From: Planctomycetota bacterium
GTDB lineage: Bacteria; Planctomycetota; Phycisphaerae; WQYP01
Assembly (NCBI GenBank): GCA_021805985.1
Contig: JAJZDN010000019.1
Location: 4,947-68,946, forward strand
DNA: 64,000 nt
Reading direction: 5' to 3'
The position numbers and the translations under genes were made by a program. This document shows positions 2,949 through 64,000 of the stretch, piece after piece (positions within the stretch are counted from its first letter, which is position 1; every line of letters starts with the position of its first letter). Below the pieces are notes generated by a model. It saw only the letters and a program-made list of their open reading frames with translations, had not been told where the DNA came from and ran no database searches.

Positions 2949-3177
2949 AAGAGGCGCGCTGTCACAGCAAGAAACTAGGCTCCGCAGTGAAGTCCTGTGG
3001 TTCGAGGGGGATCCACCATGGAATCTCGGCACGCGGCATGTAGGTCAAAACAGACTGTAAAAAGGACCGCGGATCACGCGGATTACGCGGATAAAAGACG
3101 GGCATCTCAAATCTCAAATCTCAAATTTGAAATTTGAAATTCGCGCTATTGAGGCTCGATAGTAGGGAGTGGATCGT

Positions 3178-3560
3178 AGACCGCAGGCTGCAGGTGGGTG
3201 TTGTGTTTCGGCGACAGCCGCTCTTTTGTCCCCAGCCTTATTTGCTCTCCTGTTCACCTCTCTAAATTCGCCTGCTCTATTGGGCCTTTGGCCCAATGCG
3301 CAGATCAGGTGATTAGGTGACCGCAGGTGGGTGTTGTGTTTCGGCGACAGCCGCTCTTTTGTCCCCAGCCGAATTTGCTCTCCTGTTCACCTCTCTAAAT
3401 TCGCTGCTCTATTGGGCCTTTGGCCCAATGCGCAGATCAGGTGATTAGGTGACCGCAGGTGGGTGTTGTGTTTTGGCGACAGCCGCCCTGTTGTCCCGAG
3501 CCTTATTTGCTCTCCTGTTCACCTCTCTAAATTCGCCTGCTCTATTGGGCCTTTGGCCCA

Positions 3561-3570
<10 letters not shown>
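3178..3570. repeat. three tandem ~131-bp repeats abutting the 3' end of tRNA-Arg
   Basis: Units begin at about 3178, 3319 and 3450 and are near-identical. Each ends with the hairpin ttgggcctttggcccaa followed by a tgcgc motif that mimics the tRNA 3' end; the last unit runs directly into the tRNA acceptor stem. Confidence 0.8.
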
Positions 3571-3634
<64 letters not shown>

Positions 3635-4072
3635 CATGTCAATGTGCTTCCCGGCTCCATTAACGAATTCAATATTATCTTCAACTATCGCTGAAAAGCA
3701 AGGATTCGCCGATCAGCACCAAATTTCCTGCTGGGAGAAGAAGCGGTCGATTATTTTTCATACGATCCCAACAGGATTGAACCGCGGATTGTGCAGATAA
3801 CGCGGAGAATTGGCCTGCCACCCGGTTAAAGCAGGGCAACCTTTCATCGTGCTTTCCACCAATCGCGGCGGCGGAGCAGTGCGGTGTTGAATCAAACCGC
3901 GTCCCGCGGCGAGCTCGGCGCTGCCACATTGAGCTAAGGGTTAGCATCGCGGGCAGGGCGTTGTTGGAGAAAATGGTTGCGATGGATATTCATGTTGTTG
4001 AGTGGTTGATTCTCTGATTTCCGGTCCTACACTCTTGGGGCCTAAAATCTCGGCTAAATGGAGCTTGTGGCT

Positions 4073-4201
4073 ATGGATTTACAACTGAAAAATAAATCGG
4101 CGTTGGTTACAGGCTCCACTGCGGGTATCAGGTTGGCGATTACTAGGGCGCTGGCGGCCGAAGGGGCGCATGTGATTGTCAGGACAATAAAGCCATGAGA
4201 A
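4073..4201 (+). pseudogene. N-terminal remnant of a short-chain dehydrogenase/reductase (42 codons then stop)
   Basis: ATG 4073 translates to MDLQLKNKSALVTGSTAGIRLAITRALAAEGAHVIVRTIKP*. This is the classical SDR Rossmann start (TGxxxGIG ... GA.V) truncated by a stop; no continuation in frame. Confidence 0.4.
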
Positions 4202-4307
4202 CCATCTGGGGCGCGGCATGAATGTCCGAGTTGTGCAACGGGTGTGTTTGTGATTTTGAGGACACCCAGATTGTTTCAAAGCGGCTGTTGCGACTAAAAT
4301 CCCCCTT

Positions 4308-5660
4308 ATGCAGAGCAATGACACGATCGTGGCAATCAGTTCACCGGCGGGATCAGCTCCGCGCGGCATTATCCGACTTTCCGGGCCGCAGAGTTGGGCC
4401 ATCGCCCAAGGCGTGTTGCGGCCTTTGGCCCCTATACGGCCATACTGCTGGATAGATGCCTGGCTTGATGATCCTGCGTTGCCGGTCGGACTTATGCTTT
4501 TCCAGGCGCCGCGCAGTTTTACCGGGCAGGATGTTGCGGAATTACATATCCCCGGATCGCCGGCACTGCTGGCCATGACCATGGAGAAATTTCTGACCCA
4601 TGGGGCGCGGCAGGCGGAGGGGGGCGAATTTTCGGCCCGGGCATTTCTTAATGGCAAATTAGATCTTACCGAAGCGGAGGGAATTGCGGCGACCATTGCA
4701 GCACGCAGCGATCATCAGTTGCGTGCTGCGGCGAGTTTGCGCCATGGCAGCCTGCACCGCTGGGTGCAGAAGCAGGCTGATAATTTGGCAGACCTTCTTG
4801 CAATGGTGGAGGCGGGCATTGATTTCAGCGATGAACCGGGCGTAAGCTTCATCGCGTTGGATCAGTTACAACAACGCCTGAATGACATAAGCTGTGCGAT
4901 GCAGACACTGGAATCGCGATCGGTCAGTTGGGAGGCTCTGCCGGCTATGCCCACGGTGATCATGTTGGGGCGGCCCAATGTTGGGAAAAGTTCCCTGCTC
5001 AACGCGCTTTCCGGTCAACAGCGTGCCATTGTTTCACCGGTCGCGGGCACCACCCGCGATGCGCTGTCCGTTGAGATCTCTGATGCGTCCCGCTCGGTAC
5101 GATTGGTTGATGCCGCTGGCGTAGAAACTGACCTTACCCCAATGGCCAACCTGATGAACGATGCCCGGCGGCAAACGCTGTTGCGCGCGGATGTTATTCT
5201 CCTGGTCATCGACCATACCGATACGGATGGTTCATTACAGGCATTGCTGGGAGAGGTTCAAGACATCCATGTATGGAAAATTATTGTACGCAATAAATCC
5301 GATTTGTCCGCCGGGCTGCGTGCTTCACCCGCCGCCATACCGTTGCCTTGGATAAATGCTTCCGCTAAAACCGGTGACAGCCTCCCGGCCCTTCGCACGA
5401 CGCTCTTTGATTACGCGCACCGGCAGGCTCCCGTAACGGAAGATTGCCTGACGTTAAACAGCCGCCATCAGTTGCTGCTCCGGCAGGCGCGCGCCGCCGT
5501 GCAACGGGCTGGGGAAATTCTAGCGTCTTCCGGACAATTTCCGGAATTGCTGGCCGCGGATTTGCGAGCGGCGTTGGATGATCTGGGGGCCATTTCCGGC
5601 ACCATCAGCAGTGATGACGTGCTGGGCCGCATTTTCAGCAGTTTCTGCATCGGGAAATAG
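4308..5660 (+). CDS. mnmE: tRNA uridine-5-carboxymethylaminomethyl modification GTPase MnmE
   Basis: 450 aa. N-terminal THF-binding domain, G-domain with GRPNVGKSSLLNAL and VAGTTRD motifs, and the diagnostic C-terminal CIGK. Confidence 0.9.
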   Translation: MQSNDTIVAISSPAGSAPRGIIRLSGPQSWAIAQGVLRPLAPIRPYCWIDAWLDDPALPVGLMLFQAPRSFTGQDVAELHIPGSPALLAMTMEKFLTHGARQAEGGEFSARAFLNGKLDLTEAEGIAATIAARSDHQLRAAASLRHGSLHRWVQKQADNLADLLAMVEAGIDFSDEPGVSFIALDQLQQRLNDISCAMQTLESRSVSWEALPAMPTVIMLGRPNVGKSSLLNALSGQQRAIVSPVAGTTRDALSVEISDASRSVRLVDAAGVETDLTPMANLMNDARRQTLLRADVILLVIDHTDTDGSLQALLGEVQDIHVWKIIVRNKSDLSAGLRASPAAIPLPWINASAKTGDSLPALRTTLFDYAHRQAPVTEDCLTLNSRHQLLLRQARAAVQRAGEILASSGQFPELLAADLRAALDDLGAISGTISSDDVLGRIFSSFCIGK

Positions 5661-17223: not shown

Positions 17224-17640
17224 GCATGAGCACCGGATGATTAATCCGGTGGTTGATCCAATGCCACCGGGGCGGACGGGGTTACGGGTTACAGGGGACA
17301 GGGGACGCAATGAATGAGTAATGAGTAGAAGCTGGGGAACGATGGGGATATCACCGGAGCACCGGATGGTAATCCGGTGGTTGATCCAGTGCCGCCAACC
17401 ACCACCAAGTTATCAGAACGGCGCTCTATGACACGCTGCACCCTCCGTGAGCACCGGATGGTAATCCGGTGGTTGATCCAGTGCCGCCAACCCACCACCG
17501 GGTTATCACCACGGTGCTCGATGACACGCTGCGCCCTCCGTGAGCACCGGATGGTAATCCGGTGGTTGATCCAATGCCGCCAACCCACCACCGGGTTATC
17601 ACCACGGTGCTCCATGACACGCTGCGCCAGTCGCGACAGG
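17224..17640. repeat. MITE-like palindromic elements: one partial copy plus three tandem 93-bp units (gagcaccggatggtaatccggtgg...ccaccgggttatcaccacggtgctc)
   Basis: Each unit has ~24-bp terminal inverted repeats with an internal caccggat/atccggtg hairpin. The same ends recur at 28773, 31083 and 59325. Confidence 0.75.
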
Positions 17641-58118: not shown

Positions 58119-58729
58119 TGGTATGAATCCTCAAAAATAACTCCGCCATCAACATCAACGTAATGGCTCCAGTCTTTTATACCCGATTAACAGCCGCCGC
58201 AAAAGCTCGTGCCCCAACCCGACGATTCGACCGAAAGATGCAAAAAAAGCAAAACGCTATTCCCTGGCAACGATTTGCCACACACGGGGGCCGACTAGGG
58301 TGATCAGCCTCCATTTTAGGTAAGCAGTGGGTCAATGTGGCCAAGATGGCCAAGTTACGGGGTAGGACCCTGTCCGAGTAATCGCTGGGTTGCGACGGCG
58401 TGATTTTTGGCACCCATCAAGAAGCCGCGACGATGGCGTACCTGACAGGGATGGTACTCCGAGGAGCCGCGCCGCAGAGGGGGGCCAAAAAGCACGCCGC
58501 CCTACGGGTGGGCCTGAAATGCCCCGTCTGCTTTGTTGTCGGATCTCGCAGACTCATCATTAAGAGTCGGCTCAATCCTCCGCCGCGCATACGGGACATT
58601 TCAGACCCATCGCAATCCCGGCCATTACTCGGACAGGCTCCCAGGTGGCCAAGTTGGACATGTTGATGAATGGATTGATTTTGGCGGGTCTGATTCAAGG
58701 TGGCCAAGATGGCCAAGATGTTTGAGGTT

Positions 58730-59465
58730 TTAGTATTTAGTATTTAGGAGTTAGGAGTTGGGAGTTAGGAACTGGCTTAGGTTACAGGTTACGGGTTACA
58801 GGGGACAGCCGGCGAAATGCGGGGCAGTGATTTTCTTTAGGGTCACGACGGGAAAGAACCGCGGATCACACGGGCATCGGGCGGCGGCTCGATAGAGCAG
58901 AGAAAGTCGAGCAGGTGAGCAGTAGAGCAGATTCGGCTGGCGCAAAAGAGTGGCTTTCGCCGTAATAAAAGGCCTCCTGCGGCCGAGTGGAGCCGTGGCG
59001 TATCGGGCGGGTTATTTACTTTTCAAGCAGCAGCAGCATCAATGATCAATGATCAAAGAGCGGTATTGGGAAAGCTATAGGGCGCGGAGGGCGAGCGTAA
59101 TGGGTAGTGAATAATGAGTAATGAGTAATGAATAGAGAGGAGGAGTTGGCTTAGGTTCCAGGTTCCAGGTTACAGGCCGCACGGGGCGGAGGATCCACCG
59201 ATTTCACCGATTACACAGATTTCTGGTCTGGCGGCGCACGAGGTTACGGGTTACGGGTTACAGGGGACAGCGGCCGACGCAAAGAATAACGGGTAATGAG
59301 TAACAACTGGGGAACGATGAGGATATCACCAGAGCACCGGATGGTAATCCGGTGGTTGATCCAGTGCCGCGAGCCAACCGCGGGCTGGATGAGATTTCAG
59401 ATCTCAGATTCCAGGTTCCAGATTCCAGATTCCAAATTCTTTCGGCAGTATGGTCGCCAGATCGG
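58730..59465. repeat. composite repetitive region (microsatellites ttagtatttag/gttaggagtt/ggttacaggttacgggttacagg/ggttccagg, REP-module fragments, one gagcaccggatggtaatccggtgg copy)
   Basis: Shares modules with 13284-13705, 17224-17640, 28773-29061 and 31083-31331. The ORFs called here are artefacts. Confidence 0.6.
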
Positions 59466-59504
59466 CCGGGGCAGACCGCGTTCGCCTTCCATCTGCACTG
59501 CGGT

Positions 59505-60407
59505 CTATTGCCGGGGGACGGAGCTAACCAGGTGGAATATGAACGTGCGTTTGGAGGTGGAGGGGTGCCAATTAACCGCGTAGTGTTTATTGCGGGCGAA
59601 GAGCTCCAGGGCTTGATAGGTGGCAAATCCGCTGGGGCGGACTAAGAAAATCAGAACGGTTTGGCTGGGGCGATTATTCGTCAGGCATGGGGGTGGATTA
59701 TTGGGCGAAATAAACTGCGAAAGCGTATCGGGGACCGCGCCGGACCGGCGGGAATATTCCTCCTCAAATACCGATAGCATCTTGTGGTGGAAATCCTTGG
59801 ATCCGATACGCCAAATACGGTCCTTGGCAACTTCAAAGAGGATATCTTGTCGACTGGTTTTGCGCACATATGGAATATAAAACCGGATAGTGTGCAGGGC
59901 TTTGAGCTTGGCCAGCGCTGCCATTTGTTGTTTGCAGGCGGCGATTTGTTGCTGCGTGGCGGCAAGGGCGGCGCGCAGTTTCGTCGCTTTGGATGGCTTG
60001 TTGAGCCGTTGAGTTTTTTTCAGGAGTTTGCGGGCCGCAGCAATCTTGATCTTGGTTTGTTGGACGATTCGCTTGTAGTCTAAAGTCTGACGGTCCATGC
60101 GGGCGATTTCGCGGCGCAAATGAGCGTCCGCACCTTTAAGGTTCAACGTCTGTGCCGCCCTATGCCTAAGTAAATTCGCATAGGCGGCCTCGCTTTTCCG
60201 GGCCTGTGCCAAGCTGGCCTTGGCCATGGCCTGCATGCGCGCGATTTTCGCAATCTTGGCCACCGCCTTAGGATTCCCCGAGGAACTGCTGGTGATGGCG
60301 ATAATGGTCATGATGAAAATAAGCAGGCCGATGGTGCACGCCAGCACATCCAGAAACGAGAAGTTAAACAAATCCACACGACTGCGGCCCCGGCCTTCCA
60401 TCCTCAT
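59505..60407 (-). CDS. ExbD/TolR-like N-terminal TM + long coiled coil + unknown C-terminal domain (paralog 2)
   Basis: N-terminus ...SRVDLFNFSFLDVLACTIGLLIFIM parallels the ExbD/TolR TM with its conserved Asp. The Lys/Ala/Gln-rich heptad region is ~130 aa. ATGA overlap with the upstream paralog. Confidence 0.55.
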   Translation of the reverse strand: MRMEGRGRSRVDLFNFSFLDVLACTIGLLIFIMTIIAITSSSSGNPKAVAKIAKIARMQAMAKASLAQARKSEAAYANLLRHRAAQTLNLKGADAHLRREIARMDRQTLDYKRIVQQTKIKIAAARKLLKKTQRLNKPSKATKLRAALAATQQQIAACKQQMAALAKLKALHTIRFYIPYVRKTSRQDILFEVAKDRIWRIGSKDFHHKMLSVFEEEYSRRSGAVPDTLSQFISPNNPPPCLTNNRPSQTVLIFLVRPSGFATYQALELFARNKHYAVNWHPSTSKRTFIFHLVSSVPRQ

Positions 60408-61255
60408 TTTCCAGCCCCTGTATTAACCATAAATTTCCAACGATGCAGCGCGGGTTCATAGCCGTAATGAACTCCGGATGGGATTTCATCTTTGGCCTGA
60501 TCGAAAGCTTCAACGCCGCTTGCGTATATCCAGAATATCACCAGAGGATTATGCCTCTCGCTGATTGCTGCTACGGCCAGCCGGTAAGCGGAATTAGCAT
60601 CGCCAATGTCATCGGTCGGAGTCATCAATGCCACGGATACTCCGCCATTGTGATGAACATCAAGAATCTGTAAGCCGCGCGAACTGCAGAGAATGTGCAG
60701 GATGTTAAAATGCTTTTTGCCGTGGGTATTCATGGGTTGAAAAAAGACACTGGCGTAGGCATGGGCTTTCCGCGCTGCGGATTGATTCTCCTGTAATTTG
60801 GCCAGCTTCCGCATGACGGCAGAAAGCTTGTTATTGAGCGACTTTAGCGTCACTTTCGTTTGCTGGGTATAGACCGCCTGCTGTGATTCAATACCGGCCT
60901 GCAGGCTCGATAATTCTGTGGTGTGCACATGGGCGTCCTGCCTGGCACGGCGCATTTCCGCACGCGCCGCCTTCAGGAGCAGCAGCAGTCGCGGATCTCT
61001 GCGGTCCCGCATCTTGGAAAGTTGCGATTCAATGGAACTGGCAATGTGGGCCGTGCTTTTCGCCTCAGCCTGGACTTCGCGCAAAGCCTTCATCTTGGTT
61101 TGGATAATCTTCTTGTAATCGGTAAGCCGTGAGGCGGACTGCAGCAGAAATATCATCACCAAAATGAAGATCAGTAAGCCAATTGTGCAGGCCAGAATAT
61201 CCAGAAATGAAAAATTGAATATTTCTACCTGCCGGGCACTTCGCCGGTACGCCAT
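60404..61255 (-). CDS. ExbD/TolR-like N-terminal TM + coiled coil + unknown C-terminal domain (paralog 1)
   Basis: ...RQVEIFNFSFLDILACTIGLLIFIL then a coiled coil and a ~130-aa C-terminal domain. Starts 3 nt after the MotA-like stop. Confidence 0.55.
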   Translation of the reverse strand: MAYRRSARQVEIFNFSFLDILACTIGLLIFILVMIFLLQSASRLTDYKKIIQTKMKALREVQAEAKSTAHIASSIESQLSKMRDRRDPRLLLLLKAARAEMRRARQDAHVHTTELSSLQAGIESQQAVYTQQTKVTLKSLNNKLSAVMRKLAKLQENQSAARKAHAYASVFFQPMNTHGKKHFNILHILCSSRGLQILDVHHNGGVSVALMTPTDDIGDANSAYRLAVAAISERHNPLVIFWIYASGVEAFDQAKDEIPSGVHYGYEPALHRWKFMVNTGAGK

Positions 61256-61258
61256 AAT

Positions 61259-62296
61259 TTAACTCCCAGCCTTGGGAGCCGAGGGGGCAGCATCCGCACG
61301 GGGAGAATTCTCCACCGGAACCCCCACAGGTGCGACTGGGGCAGTTTGTTCGGTCAGGCGTTCCAGGAGTTTTTGGATGCTCTGGAATAATCGGCGATTG
61401 TCATCGGCGGTGGGCTGATCATAGCCAAGCGTGGCTTTTTGCAGGAGATTCTCAGCACAATACTCATCAATGGAAGCCAGCAGTTGATCCTCGCGCCGCT
61501 GGATGATGCTCATAATCAGCATGAGAATCAAGCTCATGGTCAAGGCGAGCATCGTAGTTTGAAACGCCTGCCCCAAGCCGTAGGTGACTCCTTTCAAGGA
61601 ATGTCGCAAGCCCGAAAGGTTGGACGCATTTTGAATCAGCGTGCTGAAATTCTGCACGCCCGCGCTGATTCCCATGACGGTTCCGACAAACCCCAGAACA
61701 GGAATCGCCCAGATGATAAACCGCGGTGCCGCGTAGCTGGATTCCATAGCCGCCAGGTCAGTCTCTGCCCGATAGCGCAGTAAATCATCCAATTTTTCTG
61801 CGGTGCCCAGTTGCGTAAAGCGCATCAGCGCGTGGCGGATACGCGATACCAGCAGCCGCTTTTTCTGGGCCTCGTTAAGGCGATTGATGCGGGCGAGAAT
61901 TTTGCGGCTCATCGCGGCGTCAATAATCTGATTATGTTCCAGTGGCAGCAGGTCCAGGTCAAAGACCGCAAACTCGCGGTTGATGACTGGAAATTTCAGC
62001 ACCAACATCCAGAATGCCACAAAGAACAGCAGCACGCACACGTAAGGCACCCACCCGTGGTTGAAGAACAGGTAATACAGCGCGGATTGCGGTGGCAGCA
62101 GGATCGGAGCCAACCCGAGGAAAGCCGCCGTGCATACCACACCTAACCCAATGGCCAGCATGGCCAGACGATCAGAAAACAGGCCGTTGCGCCGGGTGTG
62201 CGGCGCGGCGCCGTCACAAAATTCACAGCGCGCGGCCTGACTTTGGGCGTCAACTTTCAGCTCTCCACCACAGGTTTTACAGGTTGCAAAGGTCAT
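61259..62296 (-). CDS. MotA/TolQ/ExbB-family proton-channel protein with N-terminal zinc ribbon
   Basis: N-terminal CKTCGG...CEFC. TM helices. C-terminal IWAIPVLGFVGTVMGISAGVQNF...LGQAFQTTMLALTMSLILMLIM is typical of MotA/ExbB TM3/TM4. Start at ATG 62296 with GGAG RBS. Confidence 0.7.
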   Translation of the reverse strand: MTFATCKTCGGELKVDAQSQAARCEFCDGAAPHTRRNGLFSDRLAMLAIGLGVVCTAAFLGLAPILLPPQSALYYLFFNHGWVPYVCVLLFFVAFWMLVLKFPVINREFAVFDLDLLPLEHNQIIDAAMSRKILARINRLNEAQKKRLLVSRIRHALMRFTQLGTAEKLDDLLRYRAETDLAAMESSYAAPRFIIWAIPVLGFVGTVMGISAGVQNFSTLIQNASNLSGLRHSLKGVTYGLGQAFQTTMLALTMSLILMLIMSIIQRREDQLLASIDEYCAENLLQKATLGYDQPTADDNRRLFQSIQKLLERLTEQTAPVAPVGVPVENSPRADAAPSAPKAGS

Positions 62297-62386
62297 TGAA
62301 TACTCCTTATGCGAATACGTAATCCGGCATTCCATGGACGCCACTGCTGGAACCGTAGCACGCCATCCCGCCGCGCCCGGTCCGCA

Positions 62387-63832
62387 TTATCCTCCAGCGG
62401 CCTTACGTGCCGGGAACCGGAATCGCAGACTGTGGTTCCATCCAATGTTGCCGCCCGGCAACCGTAGCTGGAGAACCTCCGCTGCAGCGACCGGTCGCTC
62501 AAAAACCAAAACATCGCGGACAGTCTTTCCGGGGTAGACATCTGCGGTTTGTCGCGACTGCCCCCGCAACTTGACGCCCACGCCGAAGTTGCATTGGCGG
62601 TAATAGTTTCCCGCGTCGTCTCCGAGCGACCCTTGGTGGTTGCCGAGGACGTCGCCGCGCCAGGTGTGATAGTGGAGAATTCTCGTAGCGGAAGCATCGT
62701 GTATCGAAAGAAAAACCTCACAAAGCCGGTGCGCCGATTCGCCGGCTGAACCGTCAATGTTAATAAGCGGGATACCCCGGATTTCCACAGCGGTTAGCGT
62801 AACAATCGCGTCCCCAGCCCGAACCGGGAGTCCAATTTTGTGCCACGGGTGTGCCGCCGCCCTGGCGTTCCTAGCGTTCGCCGCCGCAGCAGATGCAGCC
62901 CTAGCCACTGCTGCCTTCACTCCCGCCGTCACGCCGGCCCTATTTGCCTCCGCCGGTTTCGTGGGCACTCCTCCGGCCTGCCCCGCTCTGGCCGCGGCTC
63001 TCGCCGCGGGTCCCGCCGCCACTTGCGTGGCTCCTGCGGCTTTCGCCCCACCTCCCTGACCTGCAGCCGTAGTAATTTGGGGCGGCGTCGCATTCGGCTT
63101 CATCACAACATAACCTACCATAAAAGTGGAAACCATTATGGCGGCCACCGCCGAGGCACAGACAGTCAGCCATCTTCCCCTTGATGTTGCTGGCGGCGGG
63201 GGTGCGAAGCCTCCCAGGGGCGGGGCAGCCACCGCCGTGGTGCCACCCGATCCAGGCACGGGCCGCGATGCTCTGCATTTCTCGTAGCGGCCCGGTACAT
63301 CAAAGGCGGCTCCGCATTGTGGGCAATGATCCTCCTTGCCCGCTTCATCCAGTGCGGATTCAAGGTCGCCCTGACATTGCGAGCAGCGGTAGATTATGCT
63401 GCGGCCGCCCCAACGGGTTTTCTTTTTTCGGTAAGATGTCGTCCCCAAGCCCTCTTTCTTGGCACAGGCGTGGCACACCAGATCTCCATCAAAATTGCAG
63501 AGAATTGTCTTGGGTGCTTCGGCCCTGCATAGAACACAAATGGCCGACTCGCTTGCGGCTCCCGGCTCTGCAGTTGACGAAGCTTTCGCTGCCTCGGCCT
63601 CCGCCGCGTTTTGTTTTGTTTTTGTGCACTGTGCGCAGTAATAATTCCCGGCAGCATCTTTCGTGCGTTCGGTGTGGGTAACATCAACCTGACACGCGCA
63701 GCAGCGTTTCACGGCGCCGCCGGGGACGTAAATTACGTTCTTGCACCGTTCGCATTTGCCCTGCATCCCCGCCGCTGAATCCGGCACGGTGGCCAGCGTC
63801 CCGCATTTATGGCATACCACGATTATCGGCAT
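62387..63832 (-). CDS. four-zinc-ribbon cytoplasmic domain + single TM + Ala-rich linker + C-terminal domain (TonB-like topology)
   Basis: CHKCG..CERCK; CCACQ..CAQC; CVLC..CHAC; CSQC..CPQC. The TM is WLTVCASAVAAIMVSTFMVGYVVM. Then AAGQGGGAKAAGATQVAAGPAARAAARA... low complexity, then a ~170-aa domain. RBS GGGGGAAG. Confidence 0.55.
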   Translation of the reverse strand: MPIIVVCHKCGTLATVPDSAAGMQGKCERCKNVIYVPGGAVKRCCACQVDVTHTERTKDAAGNYYCAQCTKTKQNAAEAEAAKASSTAEPGAASESAICVLCRAEAPKTILCNFDGDLVCHACAKKEGLGTTSYRKKKTRWGGRSIIYRCSQCQGDLESALDEAGKEDHCPQCGAAFDVPGRYEKCRASRPVPGSGGTTAVAAPPLGGFAPPPPATSRGRWLTVCASAVAAIMVSTFMVGYVVMKPNATPPQITTAAGQGGGAKAAGATQVAAGPAARAAARAGQAGGVPTKPAEANRAGVTAGVKAAVARAASAAAANARNARAAAHPWHKIGLPVRAGDAIVTLTAVEIRGIPLINIDGSAGESAHRLCEVFLSIHDASATRILHYHTWRGDVLGNHQGSLGDDAGNYYRQCNFGVGVKLRGQSRQTADVYPGKTVRDVLVFERPVAAAEVLQLRLPGGNIGWNHSLRFRFPARKAAGG

Positions 63833-64000
63833 ACTGCTTCCCCCGTTTTGATTTAATTATCTTAATACTTAATTTTGACTATACTTCGTTTTCCTGCTGT
63901 GTCAAATTAATGGGTGGTAAAAAAACGCCGTTGCAGCCCGGCGATTTCGCGGGCGGACTCCTGGATTATTATGGCGCACAATTTATCCCCACCCAATTTA

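Follow-up and report, generated by a model that had tools for sequence, protein, structure and literature searches.

We consider it probable, on balance, that three adjoining genes in a 64,000 nt stretch of DNA from a Planctomycetota bacterium (contig JAJZDN010000019.1 of assembly GCA_021805985.1; the window, hereafter) encode a stator-like, ion-motive-force-dependent inner-membrane complex, the membrane arm of a DO-GTPase/GAP1-N2 system. Motors of the MotA/ExbB type, built on a 5:2 plan, power flagella, Ton/Tol transport, gliding, type IX secretion and, as recognized recently, Zorya immunity. The three genes, g2, g3 and g4, are preceded by a fourth, g1, in the following layout.

62387-63832, minus strand: g1, 481 aa, lineage-specific bitopic protein
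61259-62296, minus strand: g2, 345 aa from its ATG, MotA/ExbB-family channel subunit
60404-61255, minus strand: g3 (B1), 283 aa, TolR/ExbD-like subunit
59505-60407, minus strand: g4 (B2), 300 aa, full-length paralog of g3

The start of g2 is taken as the ATG that has AAGGAG 7 nt upstream; public gene calls use the same start and the alignments of homologs begin there. As described in an earlier annotation made without database searches (the sequence-only reading), all four genes run in one direction, with a gap of 90 nt between g1 and g2, one of 3 nt between g2 and g3 and a 4 nt ATGA overlap between g3 and g4. That observation of a four-gene operon is confirmed by the coordinates of the open reading frames (ORFs); the interpretation then placed upon it is supported in part.

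The evidence begins with g2, the product of which matches the Pfam family MotA_ExbB (PF01618) with an E value of 6.3e-10; its 39.3 bits clear the cut-off of 22.9, and public gene calls place this domain on the orthologs as well. Four transmembrane (TM) segments are predicted, in a MotA-type topology, together with the following features.

aa 6-27 (62216-62281, minus strand): N-terminal zinc ribbon of g2, one CxxC..CxxC, found by motif
aa ~158-277 (61466-61825, minus strand): MotA_ExbB core of g2, found with PF01618

The zinc ribbon and the positive-inside rule suggest that the ribbon, the loop at residues 106-190 and the C-terminal tail face the cytoplasm. Among 16 g2 homologs the motifs IW..P..GF.GTV.G in TM3 and T..L..AF..T..A in TM4 are invariant, and the Thr, Pro and Gly residues that the sequence-only reading had proposed to look for in these two segments are thereby found throughout. 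T206 and T248, both invariant in this set, align in hhalign with T148 and T181 of Escherichia coli ExbB, the ion-pathway threonines of ExbB and TolQ. By its profile match and its ion-pathway residues, g2 can be assigned to the MotA/TolQ/ExbB channel family, and the description of it as such a channel with a zinc ribbon of its own is upheld. The ribbon is found in all Phycisphaerae members of the 16-homolog alignment and is missing from more distant relatives of the g2-g3-g4 trio.

The partners of this channel subunit are the products of g3 and g4, which we refer to as B subunits and which share a common architecture.

aa 11-42 (61130-61225, minus strand): N-terminus and TM segment of g3, with invariant Asp19
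aa 43-172 (60740-61129, minus strand): helical stalk of g3
aa 181-275 (60431-60715, minus strand): alpha/beta head of g3
aa 12-40 (60288-60374, minus strand): TM segment of g4, with invariant Asp20
aa 176-300 (59508-59882, minus strand): head of g4, related to that of g3 and carried on a stalk equal in length to that of g3

The two proteins have the sequence FNFSFLD[IV]LACTIGLLIFI in common, and its Asp is kept without exception across 48 homologs of g3 and 13 of g4. This bears out the earlier view that they are paralogs, each a single-pass partner in which the TM Asp is conserved. In BLASTP they are 40% identical across the first ~105 residues, and when profiles of the two families were compared with hhalign, columns 1-258 were aligned (99.8% probability, E 3e-29). 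Since the alignment spans these columns, g3 and g4 are paralogs over their full length, C-terminal domain included, and the statement that their C-terminal domains are divergent and unlike that of TolR is not supported; the best globular structural match of the B-subunit head is TolR. Conservation is uneven along the chain: among homologs that are ~30% identical overall, the N-terminus and TM segment have a mean identity of 82% (g3) or 68% (g4), and the stalk is only 25-29% identical, yet its length is held at 123-133 residues and is equal in both paralogs. In the AlphaFold2 (AF2) model of g3 (predicted local distance difference test score, pLDDT, 77), residues 14-42 form the TM helix, further helices span 47-80 and 88-165, and the head at 184-268 follows the order beta-beta-beta-alpha-beta-alpha-beta (pLDDT ~90). 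The N-terminus of both proteins is basic, and the Asp aligns with D25 of ExbD. A single TM segment with a cytoplasmic N-terminus and a conserved Asp, encoded beside the A subunit, marks a subunit as of the ExbD/TolR kind; by sequence g3 and g4 have such a segment, and in all loci their genes adjoin that of the A subunit. Stalk-less members of the same family (142-165 aa, ExbD-like in size and layout) bring the likeness closer, for their profile aligned with E. coli ExbD and TolR at 79.5% probability over 70 columns (hhalign), with the Asp placed on ExbD D25 and the periplasmic domain in register over its first hairpin. The B subunits most probably work like TolR/ExbD and have a related fold, while standing outside PF02472. 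Sequence searches against PDB chains with g2, g3 and the g1 ectodomain gave nothing or coiled-coil noise only, and no plasmid or phage sequence was matched by g3 in tblastn. Two further features of the family alignments may be recorded here: g4 orthologs end in an invariant Gln, and the g3 head has an invariant Cys, C190, in an HxxC context.

The second line of evidence is the company that the trio keeps. The window stops 168 nt upstream of g1, and the DNA beyond it can be seen in GCA_027428555.1, a Planctomycetota metagenome-assembled genome (MAG) the operon DNA of which is 99.98% identical to that of the window (locus L001). There, genes of a GTPase cluster are divergent from the operon, with these products.

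428-aa P-loop protein of L001: DO-GTPase2 at 22.9 bits, orthologs at 27.4-28.0 against a threshold of 27
843-aa GAP1 protein of L001: GAP1-N2 at E 1.1e-28, GAP1-M at E 3.5e-13
412-aa secreted protein of L001: resembles the C-terminal region of the GAP1 protein
~970-aa bitopic protein of L001: in the same cluster

The sequence-only reading had envisaged a free-standing machine with no adjacent partners; this was an effect of the window edge, as the cluster starts just past position 64000. On its domain content the cluster is a DO-GTPase/GAP1-N2 'GTPase-centric conflict system' as defined by Kaur, Burroughs, Iyer and Aravind (eLife, 2020; PMC7159879), where the DO-GTPase is described as a TRAFAC-type family and a GYF-plus-TM-rich protein is reported for planctomycetes. 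Within the cluster, the 412-aa protein (L001 1840-3078) resembles the post-TM part of the adjoining GAP1 protein (3075-5606), and by eye both end in ...LYPGGPVLE[SR][IF]T[YF]; the likeness suggests a duplicated periplasmic module.

We annotated 50 loci by phmmer and jackhmmer. The gene order MotA-B1-B2 is kept in more than 30 loci, and in ~17 distinct, independent Phycisphaerae loci the trio adjoins a DO-GTPase/GAP1-N2 cluster, in three arrangements to which a distant member can be added.

Divergent, with g1, as in the window: L001, L012-14, L020
Convergent, adjoining a GYF-plus-multi-TM protein: L007, L010, L018, L021, L032, L038, L040
One co-directional string, GTPase-GAP1-(p598)-970-GYF/TM-MotA-B1-B2: L017, L019
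Distant member P0095 (L027), co-directional: GAP1-N2, 970, HSP70, MotA, B1, B2, FGE-sulfatase

Among ortholog loci with at least 5 kb on both sides, none was without the GTPase cluster. Mobile elements adjoin the locus in two cases, as an integrase element in L001 and as IS66 in L009.

The product of g1 had been read as a core energy transducer of the TonB/TolA type. Its layout is as follows.

aa 1-185 (63278-63832, minus strand): four predicted cytoplasmic zinc ribbons of g1, with eight CxxC in pairs 7/27, 44/66, 99/120 and 150/170
aa 222-240 (63113-63169, minus strand): single predicted TM segment of g1
Between TM segment and ectodomain: Ala/Gly-rich linker of g1, with A20, G11 and P6 per 60 residues
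aa ~306-481 (62390-62917, minus strand): variable extracytoplasmic domain of g1, ~175 aa

Four zinc ribbons, one TM segment and a C-terminal region of ~175 aa are thus as first described, although the linker is rich in Ala and Gly and not in Ala and Pro. The role assigned to the protein fares less well. Only 12 homologs were found, all in close relatives; the zinc-ribbon head and TM segment are conserved among them, and the ectodomain is exchanged for unrelated sequence in near-orthologs. The ectodomain in the window has just one other homolog, which lies behind TM segments of a different protein, and most loci have no counterpart of g1 at all. No TonB_C match was found in g1 with Pfam or NCBIfam. 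Its second zinc ribbon (CxxC-DVTHTERTKDAAGNYYCxxC) is common to the N-terminal zinc ribbons of the DO-GTPases of L007, L014 and L020; with 1,521 ORFs as the database, the E values range from 2e-8 to 1e-6. Because the homologs are few and close, the ectodomain is swapped, TonB_C is lacking and this ribbon is held in common with DO-GTPases, g1 is best regarded as a lineage-specific accessory of the GTPase system and not as a TonB. The common ribbon recalls, by analogy, the adaptor logic described by Kaur et al. (2020), in which one small domain would be placed on both a core component and an accessory.

Beyond these loci the B subunits belong to a large family. With the g3 profile, a HMMER scan of 1.84 billion representatives returned 1,703 proteins at E<=1e-3, of which 293 reach E<=1e-10, in all ~1,700 clusters at 50% identity that are unannotated. 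Besides the stalk-less form, members occur as TM-stalk-head proteins of ~250 aa and as proteins of 550-950 aa with extra C-terminal regions; ten members covering every length class were scanned and none has a Pfam family. In a scan of a genome collection, 15 loci were found among 185,579 species, nearly all in Planctomycetota/Phycisphaerae. The contigs of several distant members are too short for informative context, but others show variants of the trio. In Nitrosomonadaceae chromosomes (L025/L026, 8182-10957) a compact MotA of 251 aa, without zinc ribbon, is followed by two B-family proteins with the FNFSFLD-type TM helix and helical stalk; the first matches VWA_2 (E 2.7e-4) and the second, which has no Pfam match, shows by eye a DxSxS motif like the metal-ion-dependent adhesion site (MIDAS) of vWA domains. 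The chassis is unchanged here and the head is another. In L022/L053 and in L044 the order is HSP70, a MotA with a long C-terminal helical tail (508-552 aa), B1 and B2; both B proteins of L022/L053 are ~500-550 aa and are followed by a fusion of Ser/Thr kinase and FGE-sulfatase and by a giant J-domain/WD40 protein, and those of L044 are ~250 aa. One distant trio has no such partners and is separated by 4 kb from a type I CRISPR-Cas locus.

Several of our results weigh against the reading of g2-g3-g4 as a motor tied to a GTPase system, and they are brought together here. No ExbD, TolR or MotB model of Pfam, NCBIfam or PADLOC matches g3, g4 or any of the 48 homologs; PF02472 gave no match at E<=1 with g3, g4 and the 48 homologs and none with the short family members, and g3 and g4 have no PHROGs family either. 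The full g3 profile compared with ExbD and TolR was insignificant (hhalign, 1.2%). Heptad periodicity is significant for stalk residues 47-80 only, and 'coiled coil' is therefore partly assumed; of the earlier claim of ~130-aa coiled coils, the long helical element stands, as modelled by AF2 for g3 and 123-133 aa in length in both families, and the label is softened here to helical stalk because the periodicity is so limited, although a coiled coil is what the stalk probably forms. In the neighbourhood there is no recognisable toxic effector domain, and PADLOC found nothing in the neighbouring genes apart from one weak match, to mad3 (E 4e-4, 29 residues), on the L001 GTPase. Finally, there are distant MotA-B1-B2 trios without GAP1, some with HSP70 and kinase partners, some with vWA fusions and some alone, and for this reason the trio is not restricted to GTPase systems.

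Our working model of the complex is as follows. As to its stoichiometry, a ring of g2 subunits would enclose a single g3 and a single g4 at their TM helices, an A5:B1:B2 assembly that we assume by analogy with 5:2 motors and as proposed for AglR/Q/S. The invariant Asp of each B subunit would be a proton-binding site and protons would flow through these residues, while the stalk of ~130 residues and conserved length would put the TolR-like head into the periplasm, ~15-19 nm from the membrane if extended. We propose that the cytoplasmic ribbons of g2 and g1, of which one type on g1 is also present on DO-GTPases, dock the GTPase/GAP1 switch, and the swappable ectodomain of g1, together with the periplasmic heads, may sense or contact the envelope. 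Signalling could run in either direction: the GTP state might gate proton flow by unplugging the channel, with the use or dissipation of the proton-motive force as output, or engagement of the motor might report envelope events to the GTPase. As to biological role, conflict or immunity is the published prediction for GAP1-N2 systems (PMC7159879), with which the suggestion of defence in the sequence-only reading agrees; such a role would fit a distribution that is sporadic, ectodomains that are swapped and mobile elements close by.

A broader proposal, which we put forward tentatively and think doubtful, is that MotA-B1-B2 trios are an unrecognised, widespread class of heterodimeric long-stalk motors, the periplasm-facing surveillance or effector engine of conflict systems switched by NTPases. 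It might cover both the DO-GTPase/GAP1-N2 loci and the HSP70/kinase variants, and such a motor could be pictured as a mirror image of Zorya, with a periplasmic lever and with zinc ribbons coupling motor to GTPase. For its part, the family as read in our working model would add to the known motors many unannotated B subunits that form a branch with a periplasmic stalk of fixed length, an obligate pair of B paralogs, an A subunit tagged with a zinc ribbon and a conserved link to a GTPase switch. The link would give the uncharacterised DO-GTPase/GAP1-N2 systems a concrete membrane output and would be a second, independent case for ion-driven motors in signalling rather than in transport or motility. 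Both the branch of MotA/ExbB-TolR/ExbD motors and the system in which it works would be new, the trio being a conserved membrane module added to the Phycisphaerae GTPase systems. Literature searches for the combination of motor and GTPase system found nothing; neither zinc ribbons nor coiled-coil B subunits nor links to GTPases come up in a survey of MotAB relatives from 2025, and the words MotA, Exb, Tol, stator and proton do not occur in the text of PMC7159879 with one supplement, the figures being unsearchable.

The main rival to a conflict-system motor, which we judge rather unlikely, is an Agl-Glt analog, an envelope machine gated by a GTPase that would act in housekeeping or motility through surface transport, adhesion or envelope remodelling. 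One TolQ-like with two different TolR-like subunits is the composition of AglR/AglQ/AglS; g1, g2 and the DO-GTPase all bear zinc ribbons, the cluster includes a GYF-multi-TM protein, and the GTPase has an associated protein. GltJ for its part is a zinc ribbon-linker-GYF switch read by MglA-GTP and MglB (PMC11135422). Many components are bitopic or periplasmic, moreover, and no toxin-like effector was found in the neighbourhood. However, the available annotation of the loci holds no homolog of Glt, MglA or AglZ, no dedicated search having been made for them, and the likeness is at the level of domain types only. The sporadic occurrence, at 15 loci among the species genomes scanned, also speaks against a housekeeping function, as do the swapped g1 ectodomains, the mobile elements beside L001 and L009, the distant trio near CRISPR-Cas and the published analysis of GAP1-N2, which favours a conflict role.

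Less probable still is a reading in which the synteny is genuine and the trio acts only as a passive anchor or scaffold in the membrane, a degenerate, non-conducting channel that positions the GTPase system. The divergence of the family beyond the reach of ExbD profile models would be in keeping with it. Yet the B-subunit Asp, the A-subunit Thr pair and the Gly/Pro motifs are exactly the residues that are invariant, and we disfavour a scaffold because invariance of ion-conduction residues is unexpected in one that is degenerate.

An ordinary Ton or Tol system, in which an ExbB/TolQ, an ExbD/TolR and a TonB/TolA-like g1 energise outer-membrane transport or integrity, is very improbable despite the MotA_ExbB domain, the apparently TolR-like heads and the cytoplasm-TM-linker-periplasm topology of g1. 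There was no TonB_C, TolA, ExbD, TolB, Pal or TonB-dependent receptor match in g1, g3, g4 or the scanned neighbours; g1, with its single ectodomain homolog, is missing from most loci and its ectodomain is unconserved; the constant neighbour is the GAP1-N2 cluster, with no receptor genes in the neighbourhoods examined; and the B subunits have a 130-aa stalk where ExbD and TolR have none. Because phmmer with E. coli ExbB, ExbD and TolR gave nothing among all window ORFs, there is by this search no ordinary Ton/Tol gene in the window. A Zorya subtype, with a ZorAB-like motor and partner effectors, is equally hard to credit: the concept of a stator-like unit within a predicted defence system is similar and PADLOC ZorA models match g2 (best E 5.5e-8), as does NCBIfam ZorA_2 weakly, but of models 461-1063 positions long the matches span just ~85-115 residues, all in the MotA core, the NCBIfam score is 18 bits against 100, g2 lacks the long ZorA tail, no ZorB/OmpA-like peptidoglycan-binding domain and no ZorC, ZorD or ZorE occurs in g1, g3, g4 or the neighbours, and the long helical extension is on the periplasmic B subunits and not on the cytoplasmic A subunit. 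A flagellar Mot stator was rejected on finding no OmpA/MotB match and no flagellar genes in the neighbourhoods examined.

The DNA around the operon has several features of its own. A sigma-70-like promoter (63878..63905, minus strand; TTGACA-16-TATAGT, 11/12) precedes the g1 ATG by 46 nt, as no more than a match to the consensus, and the total of such sites in the region is not above shuffle expectation. Directly upstream of it, a terminator-like GC hairpin followed by T7 (63926-63943, minus strand) would insulate the operon from transcription arriving from beyond the window end. Downstream of g4, the intergenic region at 58700-59500 is dense with short tandem arrays of differing 7-9-nt units (AGATTCC x6.9, GTAATGA x5, GGTTACG, AGGTTCC, TTAGGAG and CAAGATGGC), and no tRNA and no Rfam family was matched there. 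A dispersed direct repeat of ~125 bp, ~89% identical between its copies at 59248-59370 and 17279-17395 of the window, has an exact core of 41-42 nt, GGATATCACCRGAGCACCGGATGGTAATCCGGTGGTTGATCC, with the hairpin CACCGGAT-GGTA-ATCCGGTG; two copies are present against none expected, GGTTACG heptamers flank both, and the repeat could be a small mobile or repetitive extragenic palindromic (REP)-like element or a structured RNA. GCA_027428555.1, otherwise 99.98% identical, departs from the window at ~58506, and past this point (L001 12590-20850) it carries a tyrosine integrase, a D12 methyltransferase, an HTH_17 protein, DUF5131 and small ORFs, in what looks like a strain-variable integrative element adjoining the operon.

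When the predicted motor is set beside known systems, the sequence-only reading was right to place it outside Ton, Tol-Pal, Mot and Zorya, as judged by family membership; from Agl-Glt it is apart on the available annotation, in which Glt, Mgl and AglZ were not searched for. With TolQ-TolR and ExbB-ExbD it has in common an A subunit with PF01618 and the TM Thr pair, and adjacent genes that are apparently translationally coupled. It differs from them in that its B subunits lie outside the ExbD/TolR models, are two paralogs and have a stalk of ~130 aa between TM segment and head, in that its A subunit has four TM segments and an N-terminal zinc ribbon, and in that its partner is a GTPase system, whereas TonB, TolA, TolB, Pal and TonB-dependent receptors, which belong to Tol-Pal and Ton, are absent from the neighbours scanned. 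Like Zorya, it would be a MotA-like/MotB-like stator within an anti-invader system, predicted here and proven there, and g2 has weak profile matches to the ZorA core; unlike Zorya, it has no ZorA tail, no ZorB peptidoglycan-binding domain and no ZorC, ZorD or ZorE, and its long helix is periplasmic and on the B subunits. The AglR-AglQ-AglS motor of Myxococcus, which works with GltJ/GltG and MglA/MglB, likewise combines one A-type with two different B-type subunits, has membrane partners with cytoplasmic zinc ribbon and GYF domains and is controlled by a GTPase and an associated regulator; in the present loci, by contrast, the GTPase is a DO-GTPase and not the Ras-like MglA, zinc ribbon and GYF occur on different proteins, the B subunits are long-stalked and no orthology to Glt, Mgl or AglZ is seen. 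Compared with the DO-GTPase/GAP1-N2 systems themselves, for which the text of PMC7159879 and one supplement list no MotA/ExbB/TolQ or ExbD/TolR component, the loci described here would add such a membrane module to an otherwise familiar assembly: a neighbouring cluster with GAP1-N2, GAP1-M and a zinc-ribbon-bearing, DO-GTPase2-like P-loop protein and, in sister loci, the GYF-plus-TM-rich protein.

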